From: Armatimonadota bacterium
GTDB taxonomy: Bacteria > Vulcanimicrobiota > JACPDS01 > JBDRKI01
Assembly (NCBI GenBank): GCA_043814095.1
Contig: JBDRKI010000031.1
Span: forward strand, 1-40,660
DNA length: 40,660 nucleotides
Direction of reading: 5' to 3'
A program made the position numbers and the translations under genes. Positions 10,628-23,769 of the stretch are shown here, piece by piece (position 1 is the stretch's first letter; every line of letters begins with the position of its first letter). A model generated the notes under the pieces. That model was given only the letters and a program-made list of their open reading frames with translations. It did no database searches and had not been told where the DNA came from.

Positions 10628-11269
10628 TTAAACAACCCAGCCTTTTCTCATGGCCATTGCCACCGCTTGCGTTCTGTCGCTTACTTCCAGTTTCCTGAAG
10701 ATGCTTCTTAAGTGGGATTTAACTGTTTTTTCGCTTATGAAAAGCTGGTCGCCTATATCTTTGTTGGTATTGCCTTCAGATAAAAGCTGTATGAGCTGGA
10801 TCTCCCTGTCAGAAAGCTCTTTCGTATACACACCTTCTTTGGATTTCTGGGTAAGGTCTTTTAAAACTTTCTTGGCCAGAGCGGGTTGAATAAGAGAACC
10901 GCCTCCGCTTACGACTTTAATAGCCCTTAAGAGCTCATCCCTTGATATATCTTTTAAAACATAGCCTGTCGCCCCGTATTCAACAGCCCGCTTTATATAA
11001 TCTTCCTCATCATACATAGAAAGAATAATTACCTCTATATCGGGGTATTTTTTCTTAATTAAGCGGGTGGCTTCCAGCCCGTTCATACCCTTCATTTTTA
11101 TGTCCATAAGGACTATATCGGGTTTAAGCTCTTCAACCATCTCCAGCGCCTCTTTGGCTTCAGACGCCTGGCCTACAACTTCAATCTCCTCTTCCATGGA
11201 TATCATGTTCGCAAAGCCTTCTCTTACGAGAGTATGATCATCCGTAATAAGTACTCTTATTTTTTCCAT
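10628..11269 (-). CDS. NarL/LuxR-family response regulator
   Basis: REC (DDH, LMDIKM, GYVLK) plus LuxR HTH (LSDRE..NKDIGDQLFISEKTVKSH). Confidence 0.95.
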   Translation of the reverse strand: MEKIRVLITDDHTLVREGFANMISMEEEIEVVGQASEAKEALEMVEELKPDIVLMDIKMKGMNGLEATRLIKKKYPDIEVIILSMYDEEDYIKRAVEYGATGYVLKDISRDELLRAIKVVSGGGSLIQPALAKKVLKDLTQKSKEGVYTKELSDREIQLIQLLSEGNTNKDIGDQLFISEKTVKSHLRSIFRKLEVSDRTQAVAMAMRKGWVV

Positions 11270-11306
11270 ATTTTTACTCCTTATTAATGCCTCTTACGGC
11301 ACATTT

Positions 11307-13265
11307 TTATTCGTTTATAATCTCATATGGTATTTTTATTGATATCTTAGTACCTCGATTCTCTTTAGATTCAACGGTAAAAGTGCCATCCAGCATGGCA
11401 ACCCGTTCCCGCATGCCGGCAAGCCCGAAGGAATTTCCCATAAGAATCTTTTCTCTGGTTTTGTCCATATCAAAACCCTTGCCGTTATCTTCTATGTCAA
11501 GTTTTAACGATTTATTCTCAAAGACCATATCTATTTTAACCTTTGTCGCGTCAGAATGCCTGCTTATATTATTAAGCGACTCCTGTACTATCCTGAAAAC
11601 CGACACGGTTAATGCCGACGAAACGTTAACTTTATCAAGATTTGACTTAAAATTAACTTCTATGTTTTTCTCGTTTACAAACCTGTTAACATACACATGG
11701 ATAGCCGATACAAGCCCTAAATCGTCTAAAGATGTAGGACGCAGGTCAAAAATAATCTGCCTTATCTCTTTTACATTGTCCATAATGACTGTTTTTACCT
11801 GCTCCAGCATATTTTTTACTTTGTCGGGATTCTGTGTTACAAGATCAATGCTCATCTGGATCTTGGTTAAAATCCCGACTAAAGACTGTGCTGTGCCGTC
11901 ATGAATCTCCGATGCTATTCTTCTTCTTTCGTCTTCCTGAGCGTATATAAGCTGGGAAAGAAGCTTCTCAATATTCTTCTGGCGCACTGTCGCAAGCTCA
12001 TTTAATAACGCGTTATCGATGGAAATATCAATCTCCGCGGCCACAGTAGATACAAGGGAGGCTTCCTGCGGGGTCAGAGAATGAGTCTCCTTGCTAAAAA
12101 GAATAAAGAATCCCCTTAGCCTGTCTTTTGAATACAGGGGGAAACAGTCCGCGCTCTTGAAACCGCAGCGCTCCAGTTCTTCTAAAAAGGATGATTTTTT
12201 TTCCTTTTCCACGGCACTTGATACGCTCTGGGTATGTTCATCCTGTACCGCCTGTATAAAATTATCGTTTTTATCAAGCATATCTAATTTAAAATCTTCC
12301 GGAAGTCCTATATTCTGTTCCAGAACAAAGTTTTCTTTTTCTTCACTGTAAAGATATACACAGCACCCGGATATAGGAATTATTTTAAGCAGATAGCGCA
12401 TGGCGCCTTCTAATATTTTCCTTAAATCAAGACGCGAATTTAAAAATTTGGATATATCATAAAGAACCGAGAGTTCTTTTACCCGCATATTAAGCTCTTT
12501 TAACAATATACCTTTTGTGTCGGATATTACTTCTTTTTCTTCCATCATTTTTAACATGAAATCCAGACCTGCCGCACCTATGTATTCAATGCCCTTTTCC
12601 TCTATTTTCCCTTTTATTTCCTGATCCGGTGTTTGGTTGGAATCCAGAATTATATTTAAAGTCTGGAGCTTTAGAAGCCTCTGGGGATTATCCGTAAATA
12701 ATATGTTCAGCATTTTTGCAAGCTTAGAGCCTTCGGACTCTATATCAGGGTCCGCGTACCCCAGAATTTGTACTTTAGGATTACCTGACAGGGTTCTTAA
12801 TATATTTATGCCTCTTTTGCCGCTCCCTATAATAGCTATATTAACTAACTCCGTATCAGTTGTTCCGGTACCTGTTTTGTCCTGTTTTATCTCTTTTTTA
12901 AATATCGTCTGGTTTATAAGCTCCACCAGTTTTTTAGTATTAAACGGCTTGGCTACATAATCAACTATATCCTGAGAGTAGCCCTTGCTGATATCTTCCT
13001 TAGTCTGGGAAGCCGTTAACATTATTATGGGAATATTCCTGATTCTGGGATTTGTTTTTATTGCTTCCAAAACCTCCCAGCCGTCCATTTTAGGCATCAT
13101 AACATCCAGAACAATTAAGTCCGGTTTCTCAATTTCTATTTTCTCAAGACCTGAAGCCCCGTCATAAGCGCTGACAACTTCATAATCCTCAAAATTCAGG
13201 TTAATCTCAAGCAATTTAACCACGTTTGGATTATCATCTACCACCAATATCTTGCCTTTTGACAC
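11307..13265 (-). CDS. Hybrid sensor histidine kinase (REC - Rossmann-like - GAF - HisKA_3 - HATPase)
   Basis: ILVVDD/LDVMMP receiver; IAIIGSGKRG; GAF-like segment; ERRRIASEIHD; QESLNNISRH, DNGKGF, GLAGMRER. Confidence 0.9.
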   Translation of the reverse strand: MSKGKILVVDDNPNVVKLLEINLNFEDYEVVSAYDGASGLEKIEIEKPDLIVLDVMMPKMDGWEVLEAIKTNPRIRNIPIIMLTASQTKEDISKGYSQDIVDYVAKPFNTKKLVELINQTIFKKEIKQDKTGTGTTDTELVNIAIIGSGKRGINILRTLSGNPKVQILGYADPDIESEGSKLAKMLNILFTDNPQRLLKLQTLNIILDSNQTPDQEIKGKIEEKGIEYIGAAGLDFMLKMMEEKEVISDTKGILLKELNMRVKELSVLYDISKFLNSRLDLRKILEGAMRYLLKIIPISGCCVYLYSEEKENFVLEQNIGLPEDFKLDMLDKNDNFIQAVQDEHTQSVSSAVEKEKKSSFLEELERCGFKSADCFPLYSKDRLRGFFILFSKETHSLTPQEASLVSTVAAEIDISIDNALLNELATVRQKNIEKLLSQLIYAQEDERRRIASEIHDGTAQSLVGILTKIQMSIDLVTQNPDKVKNMLEQVKTVIMDNVKEIRQIIFDLRPTSLDDLGLVSAIHVYVNRFVNEKNIEVNFKSNLDKVNVSSALTVSVFRIVQESLNNISRHSDATKVKIDMVFENKSLKLDIEDNGKGFDMDKTREKILMGNSFGLAGMRERVAMLDGTFTVESKENRGTKISIKIPYEIINE

Positions 13266-13612
13266 TATATCACTTCCTGCAGCTTATTAATTTTTTCTTT
13301 AAGTTCCAGCATTACAAGCCCCATATTGGCTTTCTTTTCAAGAAACACCGCTAAATACGTGAACGAATCCAGACCTTTTACGAAAAAGTTATAATCTTCT
13401 CCTTCTACATTTAACAGGTCAAAACCTTTCCTGAGCAATCTTGCTTGTGCAATCTGATCAACAAGATTGATCAGGTCCGCCAGACTGGCGGCAAGAAAAT
13501 CCGCGTCTTTAATATCCGCCCATTCCTGTTCGATTATCAAACCGTCTTTCCCGAAAACAACAGCCCCCTTAAACCCGGGTATCCCGCCAAACTCTCTCAG
13601 CTGTTCCTGCAT
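13265..13612 (-). CDS. Roadblock/LC7 (MglB-like) protein
   Basis: IPGFKGAVVFGKDGLII start and ANMGLVMLELK end; 115 aa. Confidence 0.85.
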   Translation of the reverse strand: MQEQLREFGGIPGFKGAVVFGKDGLIIEQEWADIKDADFLAASLADLINLVDQIAQARLLRKGFDLLNVEGEDYNFFVKGLDSFTYLAVFLEKKANMGLVMLELKEKINKLQEVI

Positions 13613-15597
13613 AACGCCTCCGCCGCAAAGCTTTTATCCGCTACTAAAACTCTGAACCCGTCTTTGTCAACACAAACGATAAATTTATAATTGCCGCATT
13701 CCACCATAAACTTTTCTATTGTCTTTATGTTCATTCTTATGAAAAAACCAATAGCAATATTATATAATTCAAGTATAAATTCCTTTATCTGTTCCAGATT
13801 AAAATCTTCCGTTACCTGAACTTCTTTAACCGATCCCTTTGAATCCATAAGAAAGGTTCCTTTAACGCCTTTTAAAGCTATAATTTCATTATTAATATCA
13901 GGAATAATTTTTATTTTTCTGTTTTTATTTAATAAAAGAACGGCCATCTCCCCTGCAGGATAAAGCATTAAAGTTCTATCTTTTATGTCAAAATAAAAGC
14001 GCCGGACCTCGCCCGCGTCAAAATGGCGGGCTATATCTAGAGAGACGGAAATAACTTCACTTATATAGGGGACTATTTTTTCAGTCTCCTGCTCCATATC
14101 AGCCGATGAGCTGTACAAACCGAGCCCTGATAAAAAATCTATTACCGAACATCCGAATGATTTAATTTTATCAAATTTCTTTAATTTGTTTTTCACACCT
14201 GATAAATCTGAATTTATCATGTCGTCAAAAATAAATCCCGCGATCTCCTCGGCTTTATAATATTCTTCCAACAAACCTTTCTCATCGGATATGACTTTTT
14301 TATATACCGGGGCTTTAACTTGATTTATTTCTTTTGGGAGTTCAGGTTTAAATTCATGTATGATTTTCTCTTCTTTTACAACCTTTTCCGCGCCTTTTTC
14401 GGAAGATTCTTTCAAAAATTGGTTAATATAAGTTAGAAGTTCCACTTTTGTGCAATTTGTAAAAATGCTTATCAGCTCTTTTATATTTTTTACGCATGCA
14501 TTATCTAATACTTCCGTAATATTATTATAAAATTCATCCCAGCTGGTATAAACCGCTATATTTTCTTCGTTTTTATTTTTTAAAAAATATTTAACCGCGG
14601 GGGGGGGCTCGCTTAATGAAAAAACAGCTCCAAGGTCGGCTTTATAAAACTGCTTCTTGCTCATAAAATAATACAGGTCGGCAAGATCAAGTTCTTCTTC
14701 TTTTATCTGGAGCAGGATTAATTTAGACTGATAATTTATAATTAAATCAAGTGAATTTCTCTCTGTTTCTTCTTTATAAAATACTTTTAAGTCTCTTTTA
14801 AGGTTATTATGCAGGTAAGCGGCTATGATAAAGCCGGCCCAGAAATTTTTCCTGGCAAATAAGGCGCCTGCGTCTGTCATTGTAATAAACTGATTTATTT
14901 TTTCCTCATCCAGCATCCTGCCGCATGAGAAACATTTAAAACCGCGGCCATGGGACTCCTCTATTATATCGTAAGAAGAAACGCGTATAATCTGGGCTTT
15001 GGTTTCCGTACAGAAAACAACATACTCCCTTTTTATAAGGCCGTGTTCTTCAAGTTTTTTTAAAATTTCTTCTAGTTTTTCACCGTCCGTATTTTTAAAT
15101 TCATTTATCCATATGCCTTCTTTTATCTGTTCAATTACGCATCTTACATCTTCATCTTTAAGTTCATCCGCGATTCTAAGCTGTTCTTTGTTAAGATCAA
15201 ACGGATGGGTTTCTTCTTTGACATACTTAAAATAAGGCGATTCCTCCGTTCCTTCAAACATAATATTATTGCGAATATCAGAGGATAGTACATTTCTTAC
15301 ATCATCTTTAAACGGTTCAAATCCGGTGCCTATTCGTTCATCTAAAGAAAAAGTCCCTATTTCCAGATAATCATAATCTTTAGAAAAATAATAAAAATTA
15401 ATATTCTTGCCGTCTAAAAGAAATAAATCGGCATCTCTTTCAATCCCGTCATTAATATCGCTTATTCCAAACTCCGACAGGTATTTTCTTTTTAGATCCG
15501 CAAGCAGTGAATGATGCTTTTTGTTAAGATACCGGCTTAACTTATATTTTGTTTCTTTGCTTAATTTCTCTTTTAAGCAAAGACGCTTTATATCCAT
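13597..15597 (-). CDS. Multidomain protein: wHTH/Zn-ribbon, PD-(D/E)xK-like domain, tandem Roadblock-like domains
   Basis: 666-codon ORF with GAGGT SD; C...CxxC; LDLII-x-LILLQIK; two C-terminal Roadblock-like repeats (domain calls by eye). Confidence 0.6.
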   Translation of the reverse strand: MDIKRLCLKEKLSKETKYKLSRYLNKKHHSLLADLKRKYLSEFGISDINDGIERDADLFLLDGKNINFYYFSKDYDYLEIGTFSLDERIGTGFEPFKDDVRNVLSSDIRNNIMFEGTEESPYFKYVKEETHPFDLNKEQLRIADELKDEDVRCVIEQIKEGIWINEFKNTDGEKLEEILKKLEEHGLIKREYVVFCTETKAQIIRVSSYDIIEESHGRGFKCFSCGRMLDEEKINQFITMTDAGALFARKNFWAGFIIAAYLHNNLKRDLKVFYKEETERNSLDLIINYQSKLILLQIKEEELDLADLYYFMSKKQFYKADLGAVFSLSEPPPAVKYFLKNKNEENIAVYTSWDEFYNNITEVLDNACVKNIKELISIFTNCTKVELLTYINQFLKESSEKGAEKVVKEEKIIHEFKPELPKEINQVKAPVYKKVISDEKGLLEEYYKAEEIAGFIFDDMINSDLSGVKNKLKKFDKIKSFGCSVIDFLSGLGLYSSSADMEQETEKIVPYISEVISVSLDIARHFDAGEVRRFYFDIKDRTLMLYPAGEMAVLLLNKNRKIKIIPDINNEIIALKGVKGTFLMDSKGSVKEVQVTEDFNLEQIKEFILELYNIAIGFFIRMNIKTIEKFMVECGNYKFIVCVDKDGFRVLVADKSFAAEALCRNS

Positions 15598-15727
15598 AAA
15601 TACCTCTTAACCGTTCTTCAGACAAAAATAGTTAATTATATATAATATTACTATATTATATAAGAGCTTAAACAGTTACATTAGTCAAAAAGGCATTTTT
15701 TCCTGCTAAACTCTGTTTTTCATTCAT

Positions 15728-15768
15728 TCCGGAAAACACTTGAAAATATCCGGAAAACATAGTATAAT
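15728..15768 (+). promoter_or_regulatory. sigma70 promoter overlapped by TCCGGAAAACA direct repeats
   Basis: TTGAAA(15740)-17-TATAAT(15763); repeats at 15728-15738 and 15749-15759. Confidence 0.7.
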
Positions 15769-15821
15769 CAGAAAAAACTACCAAATCAAGCCGTCAAAAC
15801 ACAAAATCGGAGGCAGAAATT

Positions 15822-16736
15822 ATGAATTTTATAAGAAATTCCAAGTTTGTACTGGCCGCAACATTGCTGCTTATTATAACTACTGCAGCAGTATTTGCAG
15901 CCGGCTCACCCTCGGTATACCTTAATGACACAAAGGTTAATGTAACACCCGTAGTTAAAAACTATGTTAATTACCTTTCAATAAAAACATTATCCTCTCT
16001 TCTGCAGACTAAAATACAGTATACCTCGCCTGCAAACTGCGTAAAAGTAAACGGTGAAATCGTAAGGCTAAAAGCCGACCCCATAACAAGAGGAGGGCAA
16101 ACTTACCTGCCAGTAGCTTCAGTGGTAAAGGCCGCCGGCGGCACTGTTTATTATGATGCCAGCACAAACGCGTTAAGAATAAACTGCCCTGACAAGGCAT
16201 CTACTTCTTCTACTTATGAAAAAACGGAAGTTATAAAAATAAAACCCGTTGACGGAGATGAAGTTGTCGCAACCGAAACTATCATAATCAAGAAAACGAC
16301 CGAAACAAAACAAACAACCACCACCCAGGAAACCTCTTCCAAAGATGATGATGAAGATGATGAATCAAAGCCCTTCATACCCAGAAGCGCTTCAAATGAT
16401 GTGTTTAAAGTCACCGTAACAAACATGGAAGTCGCCCAGATGGTAAAGGGAAATTACTCGGCAAAACCAGGTTTTAAATTCGTGGTTGTTTACTTCTCAC
16501 AGCATAATATCTCAGACCAGCTCCAGACTTATCTGGGCAGGTTCCGCCTTAAAGATGATCAGGGTAAAGAATACGGATGGATAACCGGTTTAAGCAATAT
16601 ATGGGTAATAGCATTAAAACCTGGCGGGACAAATTTCGGATATCTGGTATTTGAGATACCGGCTTTCGCGTATCCGGAAGAATTATATCTTGATCTGGAC
16701 AGCAAACCTTCAATATCGGTAAGCCTTAAAAAATAA
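15822..16736 (+). CDS. Exported protein: copper-amine-oxidase N-terminal (stalk)-like domain, Thr/Asp-rich linker, DUF4352-like domain
   Basis: Signal peptide; GQTYLPV..V..A.GGTV.YD; KPGFKFVVV..F.LKDDQGKEY..GYLVFEIP. Confidence 0.7.
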   Translation: MNFIRNSKFVLAATLLLIITTAAVFAAGSPSVYLNDTKVNVTPVVKNYVNYLSIKTLSSLLQTKIQYTSPANCVKVNGEIVRLKADPITRGGQTYLPVASVVKAAGGTVYYDASTNALRINCPDKASTSSTYEKTEVIKIKPVDGDEVVATETIIIKKTTETKQTTTTQETSSKDDDEDDESKPFIPRSASNDVFKVTVTNMEVAQMVKGNYSAKPGFKFVVVYFSQHNISDQLQTYLGRFRLKDDQGKEYGWITGLSNIWVIALKPGGTNFGYLVFEIPAFAYPEELYLDLDSKPSISVSLKK

Positions 16737-19363: not shown

Positions 19364-19831
19364 ATGGATACTGCAGTACTGGACAAAATAATAGAAAAAA
19401 GAGGAAAAACAAGGTCCGCCACAATACCCATCCTTCAGGATATTCAAGAACATTTCAGATACCTTCCCGAAGAAGCTCTTGAATATGTAACAAAAAACAC
19501 CGATATTAAAGAAACTCAGATTTACGGTGTTGCGACTTTCTATTCGCAGTTTAAGCTTAACCCCGCGGGGGAAAATATCATAAAAGTCTGTCACGGCACA
19601 GCATGCCACGTGGTGGGAGCCGAAAAAATAACGGAAGGATTAAAAGAATATTTAAAAATCAATCTCGGGCAGACAACCCTTGACCGTTTATTCACACTGG
19701 AGGCCGTAGCTTGCTTAGGTTGCTGTTCTTTAGCCCCTGTTATGATGATAAACGATAAAATTTACGGGCATCTCACGCCCAAAAAAGCTATAGAAATAAT
19801 AAAGAAATATGAAAAAAACCGGGATAACTGA
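19364..19831 (+). CDS. nuoE: NuoE/HydC-like [2Fe-2S] subunit
   Basis: GVATFY, VCHGTACH, ACLGCCSLAPV; AGGAGG SD. Confidence 0.92.
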   Translation: MDTAVLDKIIEKRGKTRSATIPILQDIQEHFRYLPEEALEYVTKNTDIKETQIYGVATFYSQFKLNPAGENIIKVCHGTACHVVGAEKITEGLKEYLKINLGQTTLDRLFTLEAVACLGCCSLAPVMMINDKIYGHLTPKKAIEIIKKYEKNRDN

Positions 19832-19865
19832 GCCGGTTTTTTTAGTTTTTATTACGGAGGTTTAA

Positions 19866-21644
19866 ATGATAAAAGAAATAAGAATAGGATACGGTTCCTG
19901 CGGGATCGCGGCCGGAGCAGATGAAGTTTACAAATTTTTTGAAGAGAAGATAAAAGAAAATAAACTTAATACAGCGCTTACAAAAACAGGATGCATAGGC
20001 TTATGCTACTGTGAAGTCATAATGGATTTAATAACGGATGATTATAAAACCTATACCTATCAGAATATTAATCTTGACCGGGCTGATAAAGTATTTAAAA
20101 GCCACGTAATGGAAGGCGCCCCTGTCGCGGAACTGCTTATGGACTGCACACAAAAAATTCCCGATAACAACGAAAGCCGGTTCATGGCAAAGCAAAAAAG
20201 AATTGTCCTTAGAAACTGCGGAAAAATTGATCCCGAATCAATAGAAAACTATATAGAAGTAGGCGGTTATAAAGCCATAGAAAAAGTTCTTAACCAGTTT
20301 ACCCCCGAGAAAGTCATAGACAAAGTAACAAGGAGCGGGCTGCGTGGACGCGGAGGGGGCGGCTTCCCTACCGGGAAAAAATGGTCTTTCGCGCAAACTG
20401 TTAAGAGCGATAAAAAATACGTCATATGCAACGCGGACGAAGGAGATCCCGGCGCTTTTATGGACAGGTCGGTTCTTGAGAGCGACCCACACAGCGTTAT
20501 TGAGGGGATGATGATAGCCGCATTCGCCATAGGCTCTGATGAAGGCTATATCTACGCAAGAGCCGAATACCCGCTTGCCGTAGAGCGCCTTAAAATAGCT
20601 ATAGCCCAGGCAAAAGAAAAAGGATTCCTCGGTAAAAATATACTCGGAACAGATTTTTCATTTGAGATAAAACTTAAAGAAGGAGCTGGCGCTTTTGTGT
20701 GCGGTGAAGAAACCGCGCTTATAGGTTCTGTTGAAGGAAAACGCGGCATGCCTAATATAAGACCTCCTTTCCCCGCGGTATCAGGCCTTAACGGCAAACC
20801 CACCATTATAAATAACGTGGAAACCCTCGCGAACCTGCCGTGGATAATAACAAACGGGGCAGAAAGCTTCGCGAAAATGGGAACTGTTAACTCCAAAGGC
20901 ACGAAAATATTCGCCCTTGCCGGCAAAATTAAAAGAGGGGGGCTTGCTGAAGTTCCTATGGGAATAACAATAAACGAAATCGTATACAGCATCGCCGGCG
21001 GATCATCAACCGAAAAAAAAGTAAAAGCGGTACAGATAGGCGGACCTTCGGGAGGATGCCTGCCTTCCACAATGTTTGACACAAAAATAGACTATGAAGA
21101 AGTAACAAAAACCGGTGCGATAATGGGTTCAGGGGGGCTCGTTGTCATGGATGAAGAAAGCTGTATGGTAGACATAGCAAAATTCTTCCTTAACTTCACG
21201 CAGAACGAGTCCTGCGGGAAATGCACTTTCTGCAGGGTGGGCACAAAAAGGATGCTTGAGACACTCACAAAGATAACCGAAGGTAAAGGCACAATGCAGG
21301 ATCTTGAGCTCATGGAAGACCTCGCCGGAAAAATAAGCAGAACTTCACTCTGCGGGCTCGGCAAGACCGCACCGAATCCCGTAATATCAACTTTGAAATA
21401 CTTCAGGGACGAATATATGGCTCATATATTAAATAAAAAATGCCCCGCGAGACACTGTAAAGCTCTTTTAACCTTCACTGTAGACGCTTCAAGCTGCAAG
21501 GGATGCACCGCGTGCTTAAGAGCGTGCCCCAACGGCGCGATCACGGGCGAGCTTAAACACCCGCATAAAATAAATCAGGAAAACTGCATAAAATGCGGCA
21601 TCTGCTTTGATGTATGTAAATTTGACGCGGTAATCAAGAATTAG
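19866..21644 (+). CDS. nuoF: NuoF/HydB-like FMN/NADH-binding subunit with N-terminal [2Fe-2S] and C-terminal 2x[4Fe-4S]
   Basis: GLRGRGGGGFPTG, NADEGDPG, CGEETAL, ESCGKCTFCR, two CxxCxxCxxxC motifs. Confidence 0.94.
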   Translation: MIKEIRIGYGSCGIAAGADEVYKFFEEKIKENKLNTALTKTGCIGLCYCEVIMDLITDDYKTYTYQNINLDRADKVFKSHVMEGAPVAELLMDCTQKIPDNNESRFMAKQKRIVLRNCGKIDPESIENYIEVGGYKAIEKVLNQFTPEKVIDKVTRSGLRGRGGGGFPTGKKWSFAQTVKSDKKYVICNADEGDPGAFMDRSVLESDPHSVIEGMMIAAFAIGSDEGYIYARAEYPLAVERLKIAIAQAKEKGFLGKNILGTDFSFEIKLKEGAGAFVCGEETALIGSVEGKRGMPNIRPPFPAVSGLNGKPTIINNVETLANLPWIITNGAESFAKMGTVNSKGTKIFALAGKIKRGGLAEVPMGITINEIVYSIAGGSSTEKKVKAVQIGGPSGGCLPSTMFDTKIDYEEVTKTGAIMGSGGLVVMDEESCMVDIAKFFLNFTQNESCGKCTFCRVGTKRMLETLTKITEGKGTMQDLELMEDLAGKISRTSLCGLGKTAPNPVISTLKYFRDEYMAHILNKKCPARHCKALLTFTVDASSCKGCTACLRACPNGAITGELKHPHKINQENCIKCGICFDVCKFDAVIKN

Positions 21645-21654
21645 AGGTGAAATT

Positions 21655-23769
21655 ATGAGTATGATAAATTTAAAAATCAACGGAAAAAACATAACCTGTG
21701 AAGCCGGAAAAACAATATATGAAGCCGCGAAAGAAAACGGCATAGATATACCTACCTTATGCCACAATGACCAGCTCAAGCCCTTTACTTCCTGCTTTAT
21801 ATGCATTGTGGAATTAAAAGGGCATCCGCTCCCCGTACCGTCATGCAGCACAAAAGCGGCCGAAGGCATGGACATAACAACAGAAAGCCACTATATAAAA
21901 GAAGCGAGAAAAACATGCCTGGAACTTCTTTTAAGCGACCACTGCGGAGACTGCTTCTCGCCTTGCACGATAGAATGCCCAGCAAACTGCGATGTCCAGA
22001 GTTACGTGCAGCACATATACCGCGGTGAATACGAAGAAGCCGTAAAAGTTATAAAAGATACAATACCAATACCCGCCTCAATCGGCAGAGTATGTCCGGC
22101 ATTATGCGAGGCGGTATGCAGGAGAAATCCGAAAGGCGGTCCTGTCGGCATATGCTCTTTAAAAAGATTCGCGGCGGATAAGGATCTTGAGATTAAAACC
22201 CCTTATGTGCCTTCCACGGCTCCCTCAACAGGCAAAAAAGTAGCGGTTATAGGCGCGGGGCCGGCAGGTCTCTCCGGCGCGTACCAGCTGAAAATAATGG
22301 GACATGAAGTTGATATATTTGAAGCCCAGCCCAAAGGCGGCGGGATGCTAAGATACGGTATACCCCAGTACCGGCTCCCCAAAGAAACACTTGATTCGGA
22401 AATAGGACTCATAGAAAAAATGGGCGTTAAAATACATTACAACAATAAACTGGGCAAGGACATAAAATTTGAAGACCTCCAGAAAAAATATGACGCGGTC
22501 CTCTTGGCGATAGGCGCGTGGTCTGCTTCAAAAATGAGAGCGCCGGGAGAAGACGCGCAGGGCGTATACCCCGGAATTAACTTCCTTTACAGGGTAGCAA
22601 ATAACGAAAAAATAAATGTGGGCAAGGAAGTAATCGTAGTCGGAGGAGGAAACACCGCGATAGACGCGGCCAGAACCGCGCTACGCATGGGCAATCCCAA
22701 AGTTACCATAGTATACAGAAGAACAAGAGCTGAGATGCCAGCCCTTGAATTTGAGATTGAAGAAGCCGAGCATGAAAATATAGAATTTAAATTCCTGGCA
22801 GCTCCTATAAAAGTTGAAAAAAATAAAGACGAGAAACTTTTGCTGCACTGCGTAAAAATGAAGCTGGGTGAGCCTGACGCGACAGGCAGAAGAAAACCCA
22901 TAGAGATGCCCGGCTCGGAATTTGCCCTGGAAGCTGATACCATAATATCCGCAATCGGACAGAAAGTTGACTCGACAGAACTTAAAAATATGTCGATAGC
23001 ATTAACTAAATGGGATACAGTGCTGGTAAATCCCGATACCCTCCATACAAACATAAAGAATGTCTTCTCAGCCGGAGACTGTGTAAGCGGTCCCGACCTT
23101 GCAGTAAGAGCGATAGGCGGCGGTAAGCTTGCGGCAAAATCCATAGACCAGTTCTTAAAAGGCGAGGAAATAACGGGAATCCATCATGACTATAACGTCT
23201 CGCGCGGTAAAATAGAAGATGTTGACGAAGAATTCTATATAAACGCGAAAGATATCAAAAAACAGAAAAACAGCGAGATCCCCGTAGAAAAACGCACAAA
23301 AACCTTTGAAGAAGTTGTCGCTACTTTCTCCGACGAAGCTGCTTTACAGGAAACCCAAAGGTGCCTTGAATGCGGATGCGATAAAACACATGACTGCAGA
23401 CTGCGCCAGCTCGCGGAAACTTACGAAGTTGACCCGAAAAAATTTATAGGAGCACGCAAACCCAGTTTGGTTGACGAATCACACCCGAAGATTAAAATAG
23501 AATACTCAAAATGCATACTCTGCGGGTTATGCGTAAGATACTGTTCCGAGATTAAAAACATTCACGCGCTGGGATTCGCTTACCGCGGTTTCAAAACAAT
23601 GGTTACCCCTCCTTTCGGCAAGCCCCTGGCCGAAACAAAATGCGATGACTGTATGGAATGCGTAAAAATATGCCCCACGGGAGCGTTAACCGAAAAGCTT
23701 ATGATAAAACAGGAAAGCGAAACAACACCCGCGGCAAGATCAGAATGCAGGGCAACAGTTGCAAAATAA
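21655..23769 (+). CDS. Fe-S flavoprotein: NuoG-like [2Fe-2S] + GltD/NfnB-like FAD/NADPH module + 2x[4Fe-4S]
   Basis: IPTLC..CFICIV..PSC; GRVCP; IGAGPAG; GGMLRYGIP; GGGNTAID; YRR; RCLECGC; KCILCGLCVRYC; CDDCMECVKICPTG. Confidence 0.9.
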   Translation: MSMINLKINGKNITCEAGKTIYEAAKENGIDIPTLCHNDQLKPFTSCFICIVELKGHPLPVPSCSTKAAEGMDITTESHYIKEARKTCLELLLSDHCGDCFSPCTIECPANCDVQSYVQHIYRGEYEEAVKVIKDTIPIPASIGRVCPALCEAVCRRNPKGGPVGICSLKRFAADKDLEIKTPYVPSTAPSTGKKVAVIGAGPAGLSGAYQLKIMGHEVDIFEAQPKGGGMLRYGIPQYRLPKETLDSEIGLIEKMGVKIHYNNKLGKDIKFEDLQKKYDAVLLAIGAWSASKMRAPGEDAQGVYPGINFLYRVANNEKINVGKEVIVVGGGNTAIDAARTALRMGNPKVTIVYRRTRAEMPALEFEIEEAEHENIEFKFLAAPIKVEKNKDEKLLLHCVKMKLGEPDATGRRKPIEMPGSEFALEADTIISAIGQKVDSTELKNMSIALTKWDTVLVNPDTLHTNIKNVFSAGDCVSGPDLAVRAIGGGKLAAKSIDQFLKGEEITGIHHDYNVSRGKIEDVDEEFYINAKDIKKQKNSEIPVEKRTKTFEEVVATFSDEAALQETQRCLECGCDKTHDCRLRQLAETYEVDPKKFIGARKPSLVDESHPKIKIEYSKCILCGLCVRYCSEIKNIHALGFAYRGFKTMVTPPFGKPLAETKCDDCMECVKICPTGALTEKLMIKQESETTPAARSECRATVAK

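Follow-up and report, generated by a model that had tools for sequence, protein, structure and literature searches.

We describe a four-gene operon from an Armatimonadota bacterium (Vulcanimicrobiota lineage; assembly GCA_043814095.1) that combines Roadblock/LC7 proteins with a two-component system, and for which we found no MglA-type small GTPase. The stretch analysed (the window) comprises positions 1-40,660 of contig JBDRKI010000031.1 and has a G+C content of ~38%. The reading we favour, held tentatively and with somewhat less than even confidence, is that the operon encodes a cytoplasmic Roadblock-based signalling module that works without a small GTPase and is wired here to a kinase/NarL pair. 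The four genes, identified as open reading frames (ORFs) encoding proteins of the given numbers of amino acids (aa), are:

15597-13597, minus strand: 666-aa multidomain protein, with a ~400-aa N-terminal module, a low-complexity linker and two C-terminal Roadblock-like domains (ORF)
13612-13265, minus strand: 115-aa stand-alone Roadblock/LC7 protein (ORF, Pfam, reading of the junction)
13265-11307, minus strand: 652-aa soluble hybrid histidine kinase, GTG start (ORF, Pfam)
11269-10628, minus strand: 213-aa NarL/LuxR-type response regulator with receiver (REC) and GerE domains (ORF, Pfam)

The first-pass annotation of this DNA had reported four co-oriented genes, three close junctions and no GTPase gene in the operon. 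All of this agrees with what we see: the ORFs lie on the minus strand, the junctions were confirmed by reading them directly, and the Pfam matches of the four proteins include no GTPase. The end of the 666-aa gene runs 16 nucleotides (nt) into the 115-aa gene (ATGCAGGAACAGCTGA, 13597-13612), and a GGAGG precedes the ATG of the 115-aa gene. The TAG of the 115-aa gene and the GTG of the kinase gene have one G in common (TAGTG; base 13265), with an AGGAAG upstream, and the kinase and regulator genes are separated by a spacer of 37 nt, an AAGGAG serving as the ribosome-binding site ahead of the regulator ATG. The genes are translationally coupled, and tightly so. Based on this tight layout, the four minus-strand genes form an operon; the arrangement is not due to chance, since other families of the phylum have it too.

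The Roadblock content of the operon was examined with Pfam, fold comparison and a hidden Markov model (HMM) of the stand-alone Roadblock protein. Robl_LC7 (PF03259; cut-off 23 bits) matches the 115-aa protein with 34.8 bits and residues 504-555 of the 666-aa protein with 25.3 bits. In a six-frame search of the whole genome (2.5 Mb, 129 contigs, 98.97% complete) only these two genes were matched by this family, the long gene scoring 22 bits there, under the cut-off. The C-terminal part of the 666-aa protein contains two domains:

13915..14280, minus strand: first Roadblock-like domain, residues ~440-561 (Pfam at 504-555, stand-alone-Roadblock HMM)
13600..13896, minus strand: second Roadblock domain, residues 568-666 (fold search)

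Residues 568-666 have the alpha-beta-beta-alpha-beta-beta-beta order of the Roadblock fold and superpose on the Asgard Roadblock protein 7yh1 with a Z score of 10.2 (99 residues aligned, root-mean-square deviation 2.3), followed by MP1/p14 (Z 9.5), dynein LC7 (Z 9.3) and MglB (Z 8.9), so the predicted Roadblock fold is indeed present in the 666-aa protein; agreement with this fold is weaker for residues 440-561. The stand-alone-Roadblock HMM found two separate C-terminal stretches in seven of eight related long proteins searched, and one stretch in the eighth (L017), which is cut by a contig end. The two stretches support two putative Roadblock-like domains in tandem, both related to the stand-alone protein. 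The 115-aa protein itself, which we aligned with 18 homologues from related loci, has no NCBIfam or PADLOC match.

The first-pass annotation assumed that Roadblock/MglB proteins normally partner MglA, which is an overstatement: according to a 2014 survey, 328 out of 749 bacterial MglB homologues are orphans, none of them characterised at that time (PMC4316618). GTPase-less Roadblock proteins as such are already known and common. We searched the genome for a GTPase with two approaches. The Ras, Arf, ATP_bind_1, Roc and Gtr1_RagA profiles matched only frames of 331-731 aa, which by size and motifs are the usual translation and ribosome-associated GTPases; a 328-aa GTPase ORF has MMR_HSR1 and TGS domains, and PF03029 gave no match over the cut-off in the genome. 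We also scanned all ORFs of 100-330 aa for proteins with a Walker A motif near the N-terminus and an NKxD-like motif after it, and obtained one candidate, a CobW/HypB/UreG protein. An orphan MglA, or any other small GTPase of that type, was thus not found in the genome (98.97% complete) with Pfam profiles and the motif scan but no MglA-specific profile. Similarly, none of the 28 gene neighbourhoods examined (see below) contains a small GTPase gene, let alone an MglA gene beside the homologues; the P-loop ORFs flagged in them are UvrB, CoaE and SelB. Small Ras-like frames (163 aa) are found in four of 41 genomes of the phylum, all of one genus, and the one such locus inspected (in G015) has no Roadblock gene nearby.

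These searches also bear on the idea that the Roadblock proteins regulate an NTPase other than MglA, either an unlinked GTPase (Obg, Der, HflX or DRG-like) or an ATPase, in what would be a conservon-like G-protein system. The genome encodes multidomain GTPases, and proteins of the Roadblock/LC7 superfamily were predicted to be NTPase regulators (Koonin and Aravind 2000, as cited in PMC4316618). However, no NTPase gene is conserved beside the module in the 28 loci, where the nearby P-loop ORFs are those named above, and the rarity of small Ras-like ORFs and the lack of a Roadblock gene at the G015 locus argue in the same direction. We regard this explanation as quite unlikely. Separately, a 1272-aa frame of a related genome (G019:C11:46689-47039, L062) has a strong Ras/Roc-type match of 75.7 bits; it is unrelated to the operon's locus and may be a Roco-like protein.

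Beyond Robl_LC7, the 666-aa protein has no Pfam, NCBIfam or PADLOC match. A word-based search gave four close homologues (43-47% identity), and an exhaustive profile search gave 392 representative clusters at E<=1e-3, 149 of them at E<=1e-10. The family has two size classes: long forms of ~660-990 aa, and short forms of ~450-490 aa that lack the C-terminal part. We modelled the N-terminal module (N-module) with AlphaFold2 (AF2) from a 91-sequence alignment (A2), with a predicted local distance difference test score (pLDDT) of 91.7 and a predicted template-modelling score of 0.85. Two parts can be delineated in it:

15250..15597, minus strand: N-terminal alpha/beta subdomain, residues 1-116 (AF2 secondary structure)
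14518..15192, minus strand: winged helix and PD-(D/E)xK-fold domain, residues ~136-360 (AF2, fold searches, column counts)

The best PDB matches by Foldseek are VC1899 (E 1.2e-4), Can2, NucS/EndoMS, EcoT38I and Cdn1, with E-values of 1e-4 to 1e-3 for matches of the Can2/Card1/VC1899 type. An independent all-against-representatives search (VIA), which reports Z scores, gives VC1899 (Z 11.9 over 220 residues), Can2 (11.2 over 186 residues, and 10.2), Cdn1 (9.6) and Can1 (9.1); in this search residues 136-250 match many winged-helix regulators (Z ~9) and residues 250-360 match restriction enzymes (Z 8-9). Structural neighbours of the N-module in the ESM Atlas bear Card1_endonuc, NA-iREase1 and Mrr_cat. 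The nuclease fold attributed earlier to the 666-aa protein thus holds for its N-terminal part: in the model, a winged helix and then a PD-(D/E)xK-fold domain make up residues ~117-370, arranged like the nuclease half of Can2/Card1.

The active site of this domain is not well preserved. The window protein and its four close homologues have D284..Q297-x-K299, and just 15 out of 46 long forms (alignment A6) retain an intact D/E-D/E-K triad, as do 14 out of 47 long and 16 out of 43 short forms in alignment A2. Other positions are kept far better: E232 and W253 in all 46 long forms, and the Cys triad C196/C222/C225, which is within the winged helix, in 38 of the 46 (both A6). Because the catalytic motif is not kept, the conserved function is probably binding, not cleavage; as judged from these residues, the N-module most likely binds nucleic acid or another ligand instead of cutting. 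Residues 1-116 match a single structure, a Roco COR domain, with Z 8.6 over 96 residues, which is not decisive. In the AF2 model of the N-module their order is beta-alpha-alpha-beta-beta-beta-alpha, and no CARF chain is among the whole-module matches for this range.

Residues ~117-370 superpose on the winged-helix and PD-(D/E)xK half of Can2, Card1 and VC1899, which are CARF-nuclease effectors of type III CRISPR systems, with Z 10-12 over 186-220 residues. But the identity is only 10-15%, Card1_endonuc of Pfam does not match the 666-aa protein, the catalytic Glu is replaced (D..QxK), the module is fused to Roadblock domains, and the modelled N-terminal subdomain does not look like CARF. Pfam scans of the window ORFs revealed no cas genes, a dedicated search of the genome for cas not having been made. 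The 666-aa protein does not qualify as a Can2/Card1 nuclease, given that the catalytic Glu is replaced, that no CARF chain is among the matches for residues 1-116 and that no CRISPR link is seen in the window.

A nucleic-acid-targeting defence or conflict system, with a Card1/Can2-like nuclease effector under the control of Roadblock and tetratricopeptide repeat (TPR) sensors and with the two-component system as its regulator, is the explanation to which we give least weight; we consider it very improbable. It draws on the resemblance in fold to restriction enzymes and to Can2/Card1/Cdn1, which are CRISPR ancillary nucleases, on the occurrence of TPR giants in conflict systems, and on PADLOC TPR models that match the TPR protein encoded next to most relatives of the operon (see below). 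However, PADLOC has no model that fits either the long protein or the Roadblock protein, and the triad counts and the D..QxK of the window protein speak against an effector nuclease, as does the strand order of the N-terminal subdomain, which in the AF2 model appears not to be that of a Rossmann or CARF domain. Moreover, 32 of the 41 genomes searched in the phylum carry the gene, and its chromosomal context is often alike. Such wide presence in similar surroundings looks like vertical inheritance of a core gene, not like a mobile defence island.

The two remaining genes encode a NarL-class two-component system. The kinase has Response_reg, GAF, HisKA_3 and HATPase_c domains, and the adjoining regulator has Response_reg and GerE (Pfam); the H-box His455 and the REC Asp of the kinase are present and conserved in the kinase alignment. 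The best NCBIfam matches of the regulator (MadR/MctR/NarL) are all under the equivalog cut-offs, and it has no named orthologue. The linker between REC and GAF in the kinase is a Rossmann-like domain (residues ~120-275). This linker of ~150 aa (window 12426-12908, residues ~120-280) contains a GxGxxG-like 'IAIIGSGKRG'; compared with PDB sequences, it (120-280) matches only the Rossmann domain of a myo-inositol dehydrogenase, non-significantly (E 0.32). We rejected an NAD-sensing role for the linker, as the 11 other kinases in an alignment of 12 do not conserve the GxGxxG-like motif. Two observations concern kinases of related loci. In one homologue (L024:10503-12470) the alignment shows no conserved H-box His region and Pfam finds no HisKA_3; it may be a pseudokinase. 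In L013, L014 and L023 a 555-568-aa protein with a C-terminal receiver domain is encoded after the NarL gene (with a weak HisKA match in L023); such fuller versions of the operon may encode a longer phosphorelay.

Homologues of the N-module occur in the 32 of 41 genomes mentioned above (23 of 31 high-quality ones), usually in two copies per genome, one long and one short. We compared the gene neighbourhoods of 28 long genes (the window, 16 fetched loci and 11 from a contig scan), using Pfam scans and a script; L044, L045, L046 and L058 were left out, as they are on the same contigs as L013, L014, L023 and L016. The recurrent features are:

22/27 evaluable loci: stand-alone ~115-aa Roadblock gene directly after the long gene, on the same strand
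19/26 evaluable loci: gene for a ~1220-1350-aa all-TPR protein directly before the long gene
12/28 loci: GAF-HisKA_3 kinase nearby, 10 of them directly downstream and 2 divergent beside the TPR gene
9 of these 12 loci: NarL-type regulator adjoining that kinase
6/28 loci: exact four-gene order of the window (window, L013, L014, L015, L019 and L023), in 4 further families

The Roadblock gene is absent after the long gene in L020, L022, L025, L027 and L028, and L017 ends inside the gene. No TPR gene is directly before the long gene in the window, L014, L020, L022, L024, L027 and L028. The two loci with a divergent kinase (in G014 and G008) both belong to family f9. The conserved core consists of the TPR giant, the long protein and the stand-alone Roadblock protein, in that order; the two-component system is an add-on with tight coupling to the core in some lineages, that of the window among them, and the TPR gene has been lost or moved in the window's lineage. 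Many TPR ORFs in the window's own genome match the TPR giant, none of them beside the operon, and the repeats preclude an orthology call. Gene order is conserved for the long protein and the Roadblock protein (22/27). The four-gene link to a kinase and NarL output, as first proposed, stands in part: the exact order recurs (6/28), but the most conserved partner turned out to be the TPR giant, with a kinase in 12 of the 28.

It is also conceivable that the Roadblock/TPR core has a function of its own, separate from that of the two-component system; the core would then be a structural or positional complex (e.g. of the cell envelope, pilus or polarity), and the kinase and regulator would merely be co-transcribed with it in some lineages. 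The kinase is absent from 16 of the 28 neighbourhoods, yet the TPR protein, the long protein and the Roadblock protein persist, so the core evidently functions without an adjacent two-component system. Envelope or surface neighbours recur as well, including Cu_amine_oxidN1-DUF4352 and SPOR-domain proteins, T2SSF with a TPR-ankyrin protein in two loci, and TgpA transglutaminase with DUF58 in five loci. But the kinase is tightly coupled where it is present (TAGTG in the window, and directly downstream in 10 loci of several families), and the same kind of kinase/regulator pair lies divergently beside the TPR gene in G014 and G008. This repeated association of the kinase in differing arrangements argues for a functional link, and we think separate functions unlikely.

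Among known systems, the actinobacterial conservons (CvnA kinase, CvnB Roadblock, CvnC DUF742 and CvnD GTPase) are the closest in kind. They likewise combine in one operon a Roadblock/MglB-type protein, a histidine kinase and a further adaptor, in a module that is regulatory, not metabolic, and in which Roadblock proteins act with histidine kinases (PMC13343842, PMC13621833, PMC4316618). Here the Roadblock and kinase genes are in one operon and coupled through TAGTG, but the kinase architecture differs from that of CvnA: it is a soluble REC-GAF-HisKA_3 kinase with a cognate NarL regulator, whereas conservons have a membrane HAMP kinase. In addition, no CvnD-type GTPase was found in the operon or the genome, and no DUF742 match (Pfam) in the four proteins. 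The operon also has two additional Roadblock-like domains, joined in one protein to a nuclease-fold module; most relatives have a TPR giant, and the phylum is another one. Since there is neither a GTPase nor DUF742, the operon is not an MglA/MglB pair and not a conservon; an MglA-type GTPase, usually encoded within four genes of MglB in such pairs, is missing from it.

TPR proteins such as SgmX act with the polarity module of Myxococcus. The MglA/MglB/MglC/RomR module of Myxococcus xanthus resembles the operon in bringing several Roadblock proteins together with a receiver-domain protein (PMC10329633). It differs in that MglA, its central player, was not found here, and in its output, which is pole-to-pole protein localisation instead of a kinase/NarL pair; the operon bears no sign of motility control. 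A more distant likeness is to Ragulator/LAMTOR-Rag and Asgard Roadblock proteins, which have the same fold (MP1/p14 and the Asgard Roadblock protein being the two top-scoring structures named above). In Ragulator, Roadblock domains assemble into a platform, and the notion of a signalling platform made of stacked Roadblock dimers applies in both cases. But Ragulator holds Rag GTPases, whereas in the present case no GTPase was found and the Roadblock proteins have a TPR protein and a two-component kinase as partners.

How might a GTPase-free signalling module work? The 666-aa protein would be its sensor/adaptor. Its two fused Roadblock-like domains and the 115-aa Roadblock protein (probably a dimer) would form a Roadblock-Roadblock platform, as in MglB/MglC and Ragulator; a precedent for Roadblock-Roadblock complexes is RomR/MglC/MglB (PMC10329633). 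This platform would tether the winged-helix/nuclease-fold module, a likely sensor of nucleic acid or of a ligand (DNA possibly included), and would modulate the soluble REC-GAF-HisKA_3 hybrid kinase, which would in turn phosphorylate the adjoining NarL-type regulator and so change transcription. In most relatives, the ~1250-aa TPR protein encoded just upstream could be a further scaffold subunit. The Roadblock scaffold put forward in the first-pass annotation is plausible on this analysis.

Several points weigh against such a module. Residues 440-561 match PAS/Cache-like sensor domains (Z 6-7) better than Roadblock, and the Pfam match of this first Roadblock-like domain is partial and just above the threshold (25.3 vs 23 bits). 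The AF2 model of the full-length protein (5 sequences) is poor, with a mean pLDDT of 51, and so is its N-terminal part of 430 residues. One large subgroup of long forms has lost the Cys triad. It is from the predicted fold alone that nucleic-acid binding by the N-module is proposed, and that these proteins bind one another is something we infer. MglA is divergent, and the Pfam profiles used might miss one. Finally, the genomes compared are kin, so that the locus counts are not independent events, and the kinase/regulator pair is missing from 16 out of 28 neighbourhoods.

A bolder version can be put forward, though we hold it to be doubtful: a TPR/nuclease-fold/triple-Roadblock complex, ancestral to the whole uncultured phylum and part of its core, would be a GTPase-independent regulatory platform that directly gates a GHKL-type kinase, with an inactivated Can2/Card1-like module sensing a nucleic-acid or nucleotide-derived cue. 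If true, the complex would parallel Ragulator-style scaffolds in bacteria, with the ATPase domain of the kinase, not a G protein, as the regulated NTPase.

To our knowledge, Roadblock/LC7 proteins are understood almost wholly as partners of small GTPases (MglB, conservons, Ragulator). The phylum offers a clean case in which three Roadblock-like domains are kept with a TPR giant, plus a two-component system in several lineages, and in which no small GTPase was found. The four-gene Roadblock system seems to be undescribed, in keeping with the first-pass annotation, which did not recognise it: the literature searched contains no description of this family and gene combination, although the supplementary tables of PMC4316618, outside the search, may list related loci. 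Working out the module would show a role of Roadblock proteins without a G protein, would give a function to ~390 unannotated sequence clusters, and would show the recruitment of a Can2/Card1-like nuclease fold as a probably non-catalytic sensor.

The surroundings of the operon in the window include the following features:

15598..15821, strand not applicable: divergent intergenic region of 224 nt (ORF map)
15822..16736, plus strand: divergent neighbour, a Cu_amine_oxidN1 and DUF4352 protein (Pfam)

The 224-nt region likely holds the operon promoter; a promoter-like site is found inside it at 15789-15761 on the minus strand (consensus match only). Downstream of the operon is uvrB, in convergent orientation. 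Rfam and tRNA scans of the window gave no matches. A gene for a Cu_amine_oxidN1 and DUF4352 protein is divergent beside the long gene or its TPR partner in L015, L016, L020, L022, L025 and L028 as well as in the window, and its product may be a target or functional partner of the module. A set of three adjacent plus-strand genes further along the window (19364-23769) encodes a 2Fe-2S protein like NuoE, an FMN/Fe-S protein like NuoF, and a 704-aa fusion with Fer2, Fer4 and pyridine-nucleotide oxidoreductase parts; the set has the look of a module for NADH-linked electron bifurcation or of one associated with a hydrogenase.

Among the loci without a kinase, one subgroup has features of its own. 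In L048, L050, L053, L055 and L057 a gene for a TgpA-type transglutaminase is upstream of the TPR gene, accompanied by DUF58 in four of the five, and in L048 and L050 the Roadblock gene is followed by genes for T2SSF (PilC-like) and for a TPR-ankyrin protein. All eight aligned members of this subgroup (the five above with L052, L054 and L056) have Ser in place of C222 and C225, and six of the eight have Asp in place of C196, which is kept in L048 and L050.

The window's own genome also encodes a second, short N-module paralogue of 384 aa with no Roadblock part (G000:C107:30-1184, L029/L061), at the start of contig C107, with a HicA-like gene, a gene for a 766-aa transglutaminase, AnmK and YdjC as neighbours. 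In three other genomes (L030, L031 and L032) the short paralogue adjoins an NTP_transferase, which in two of them is fused to phosphoglucomutase/phosphomannomutase domains.

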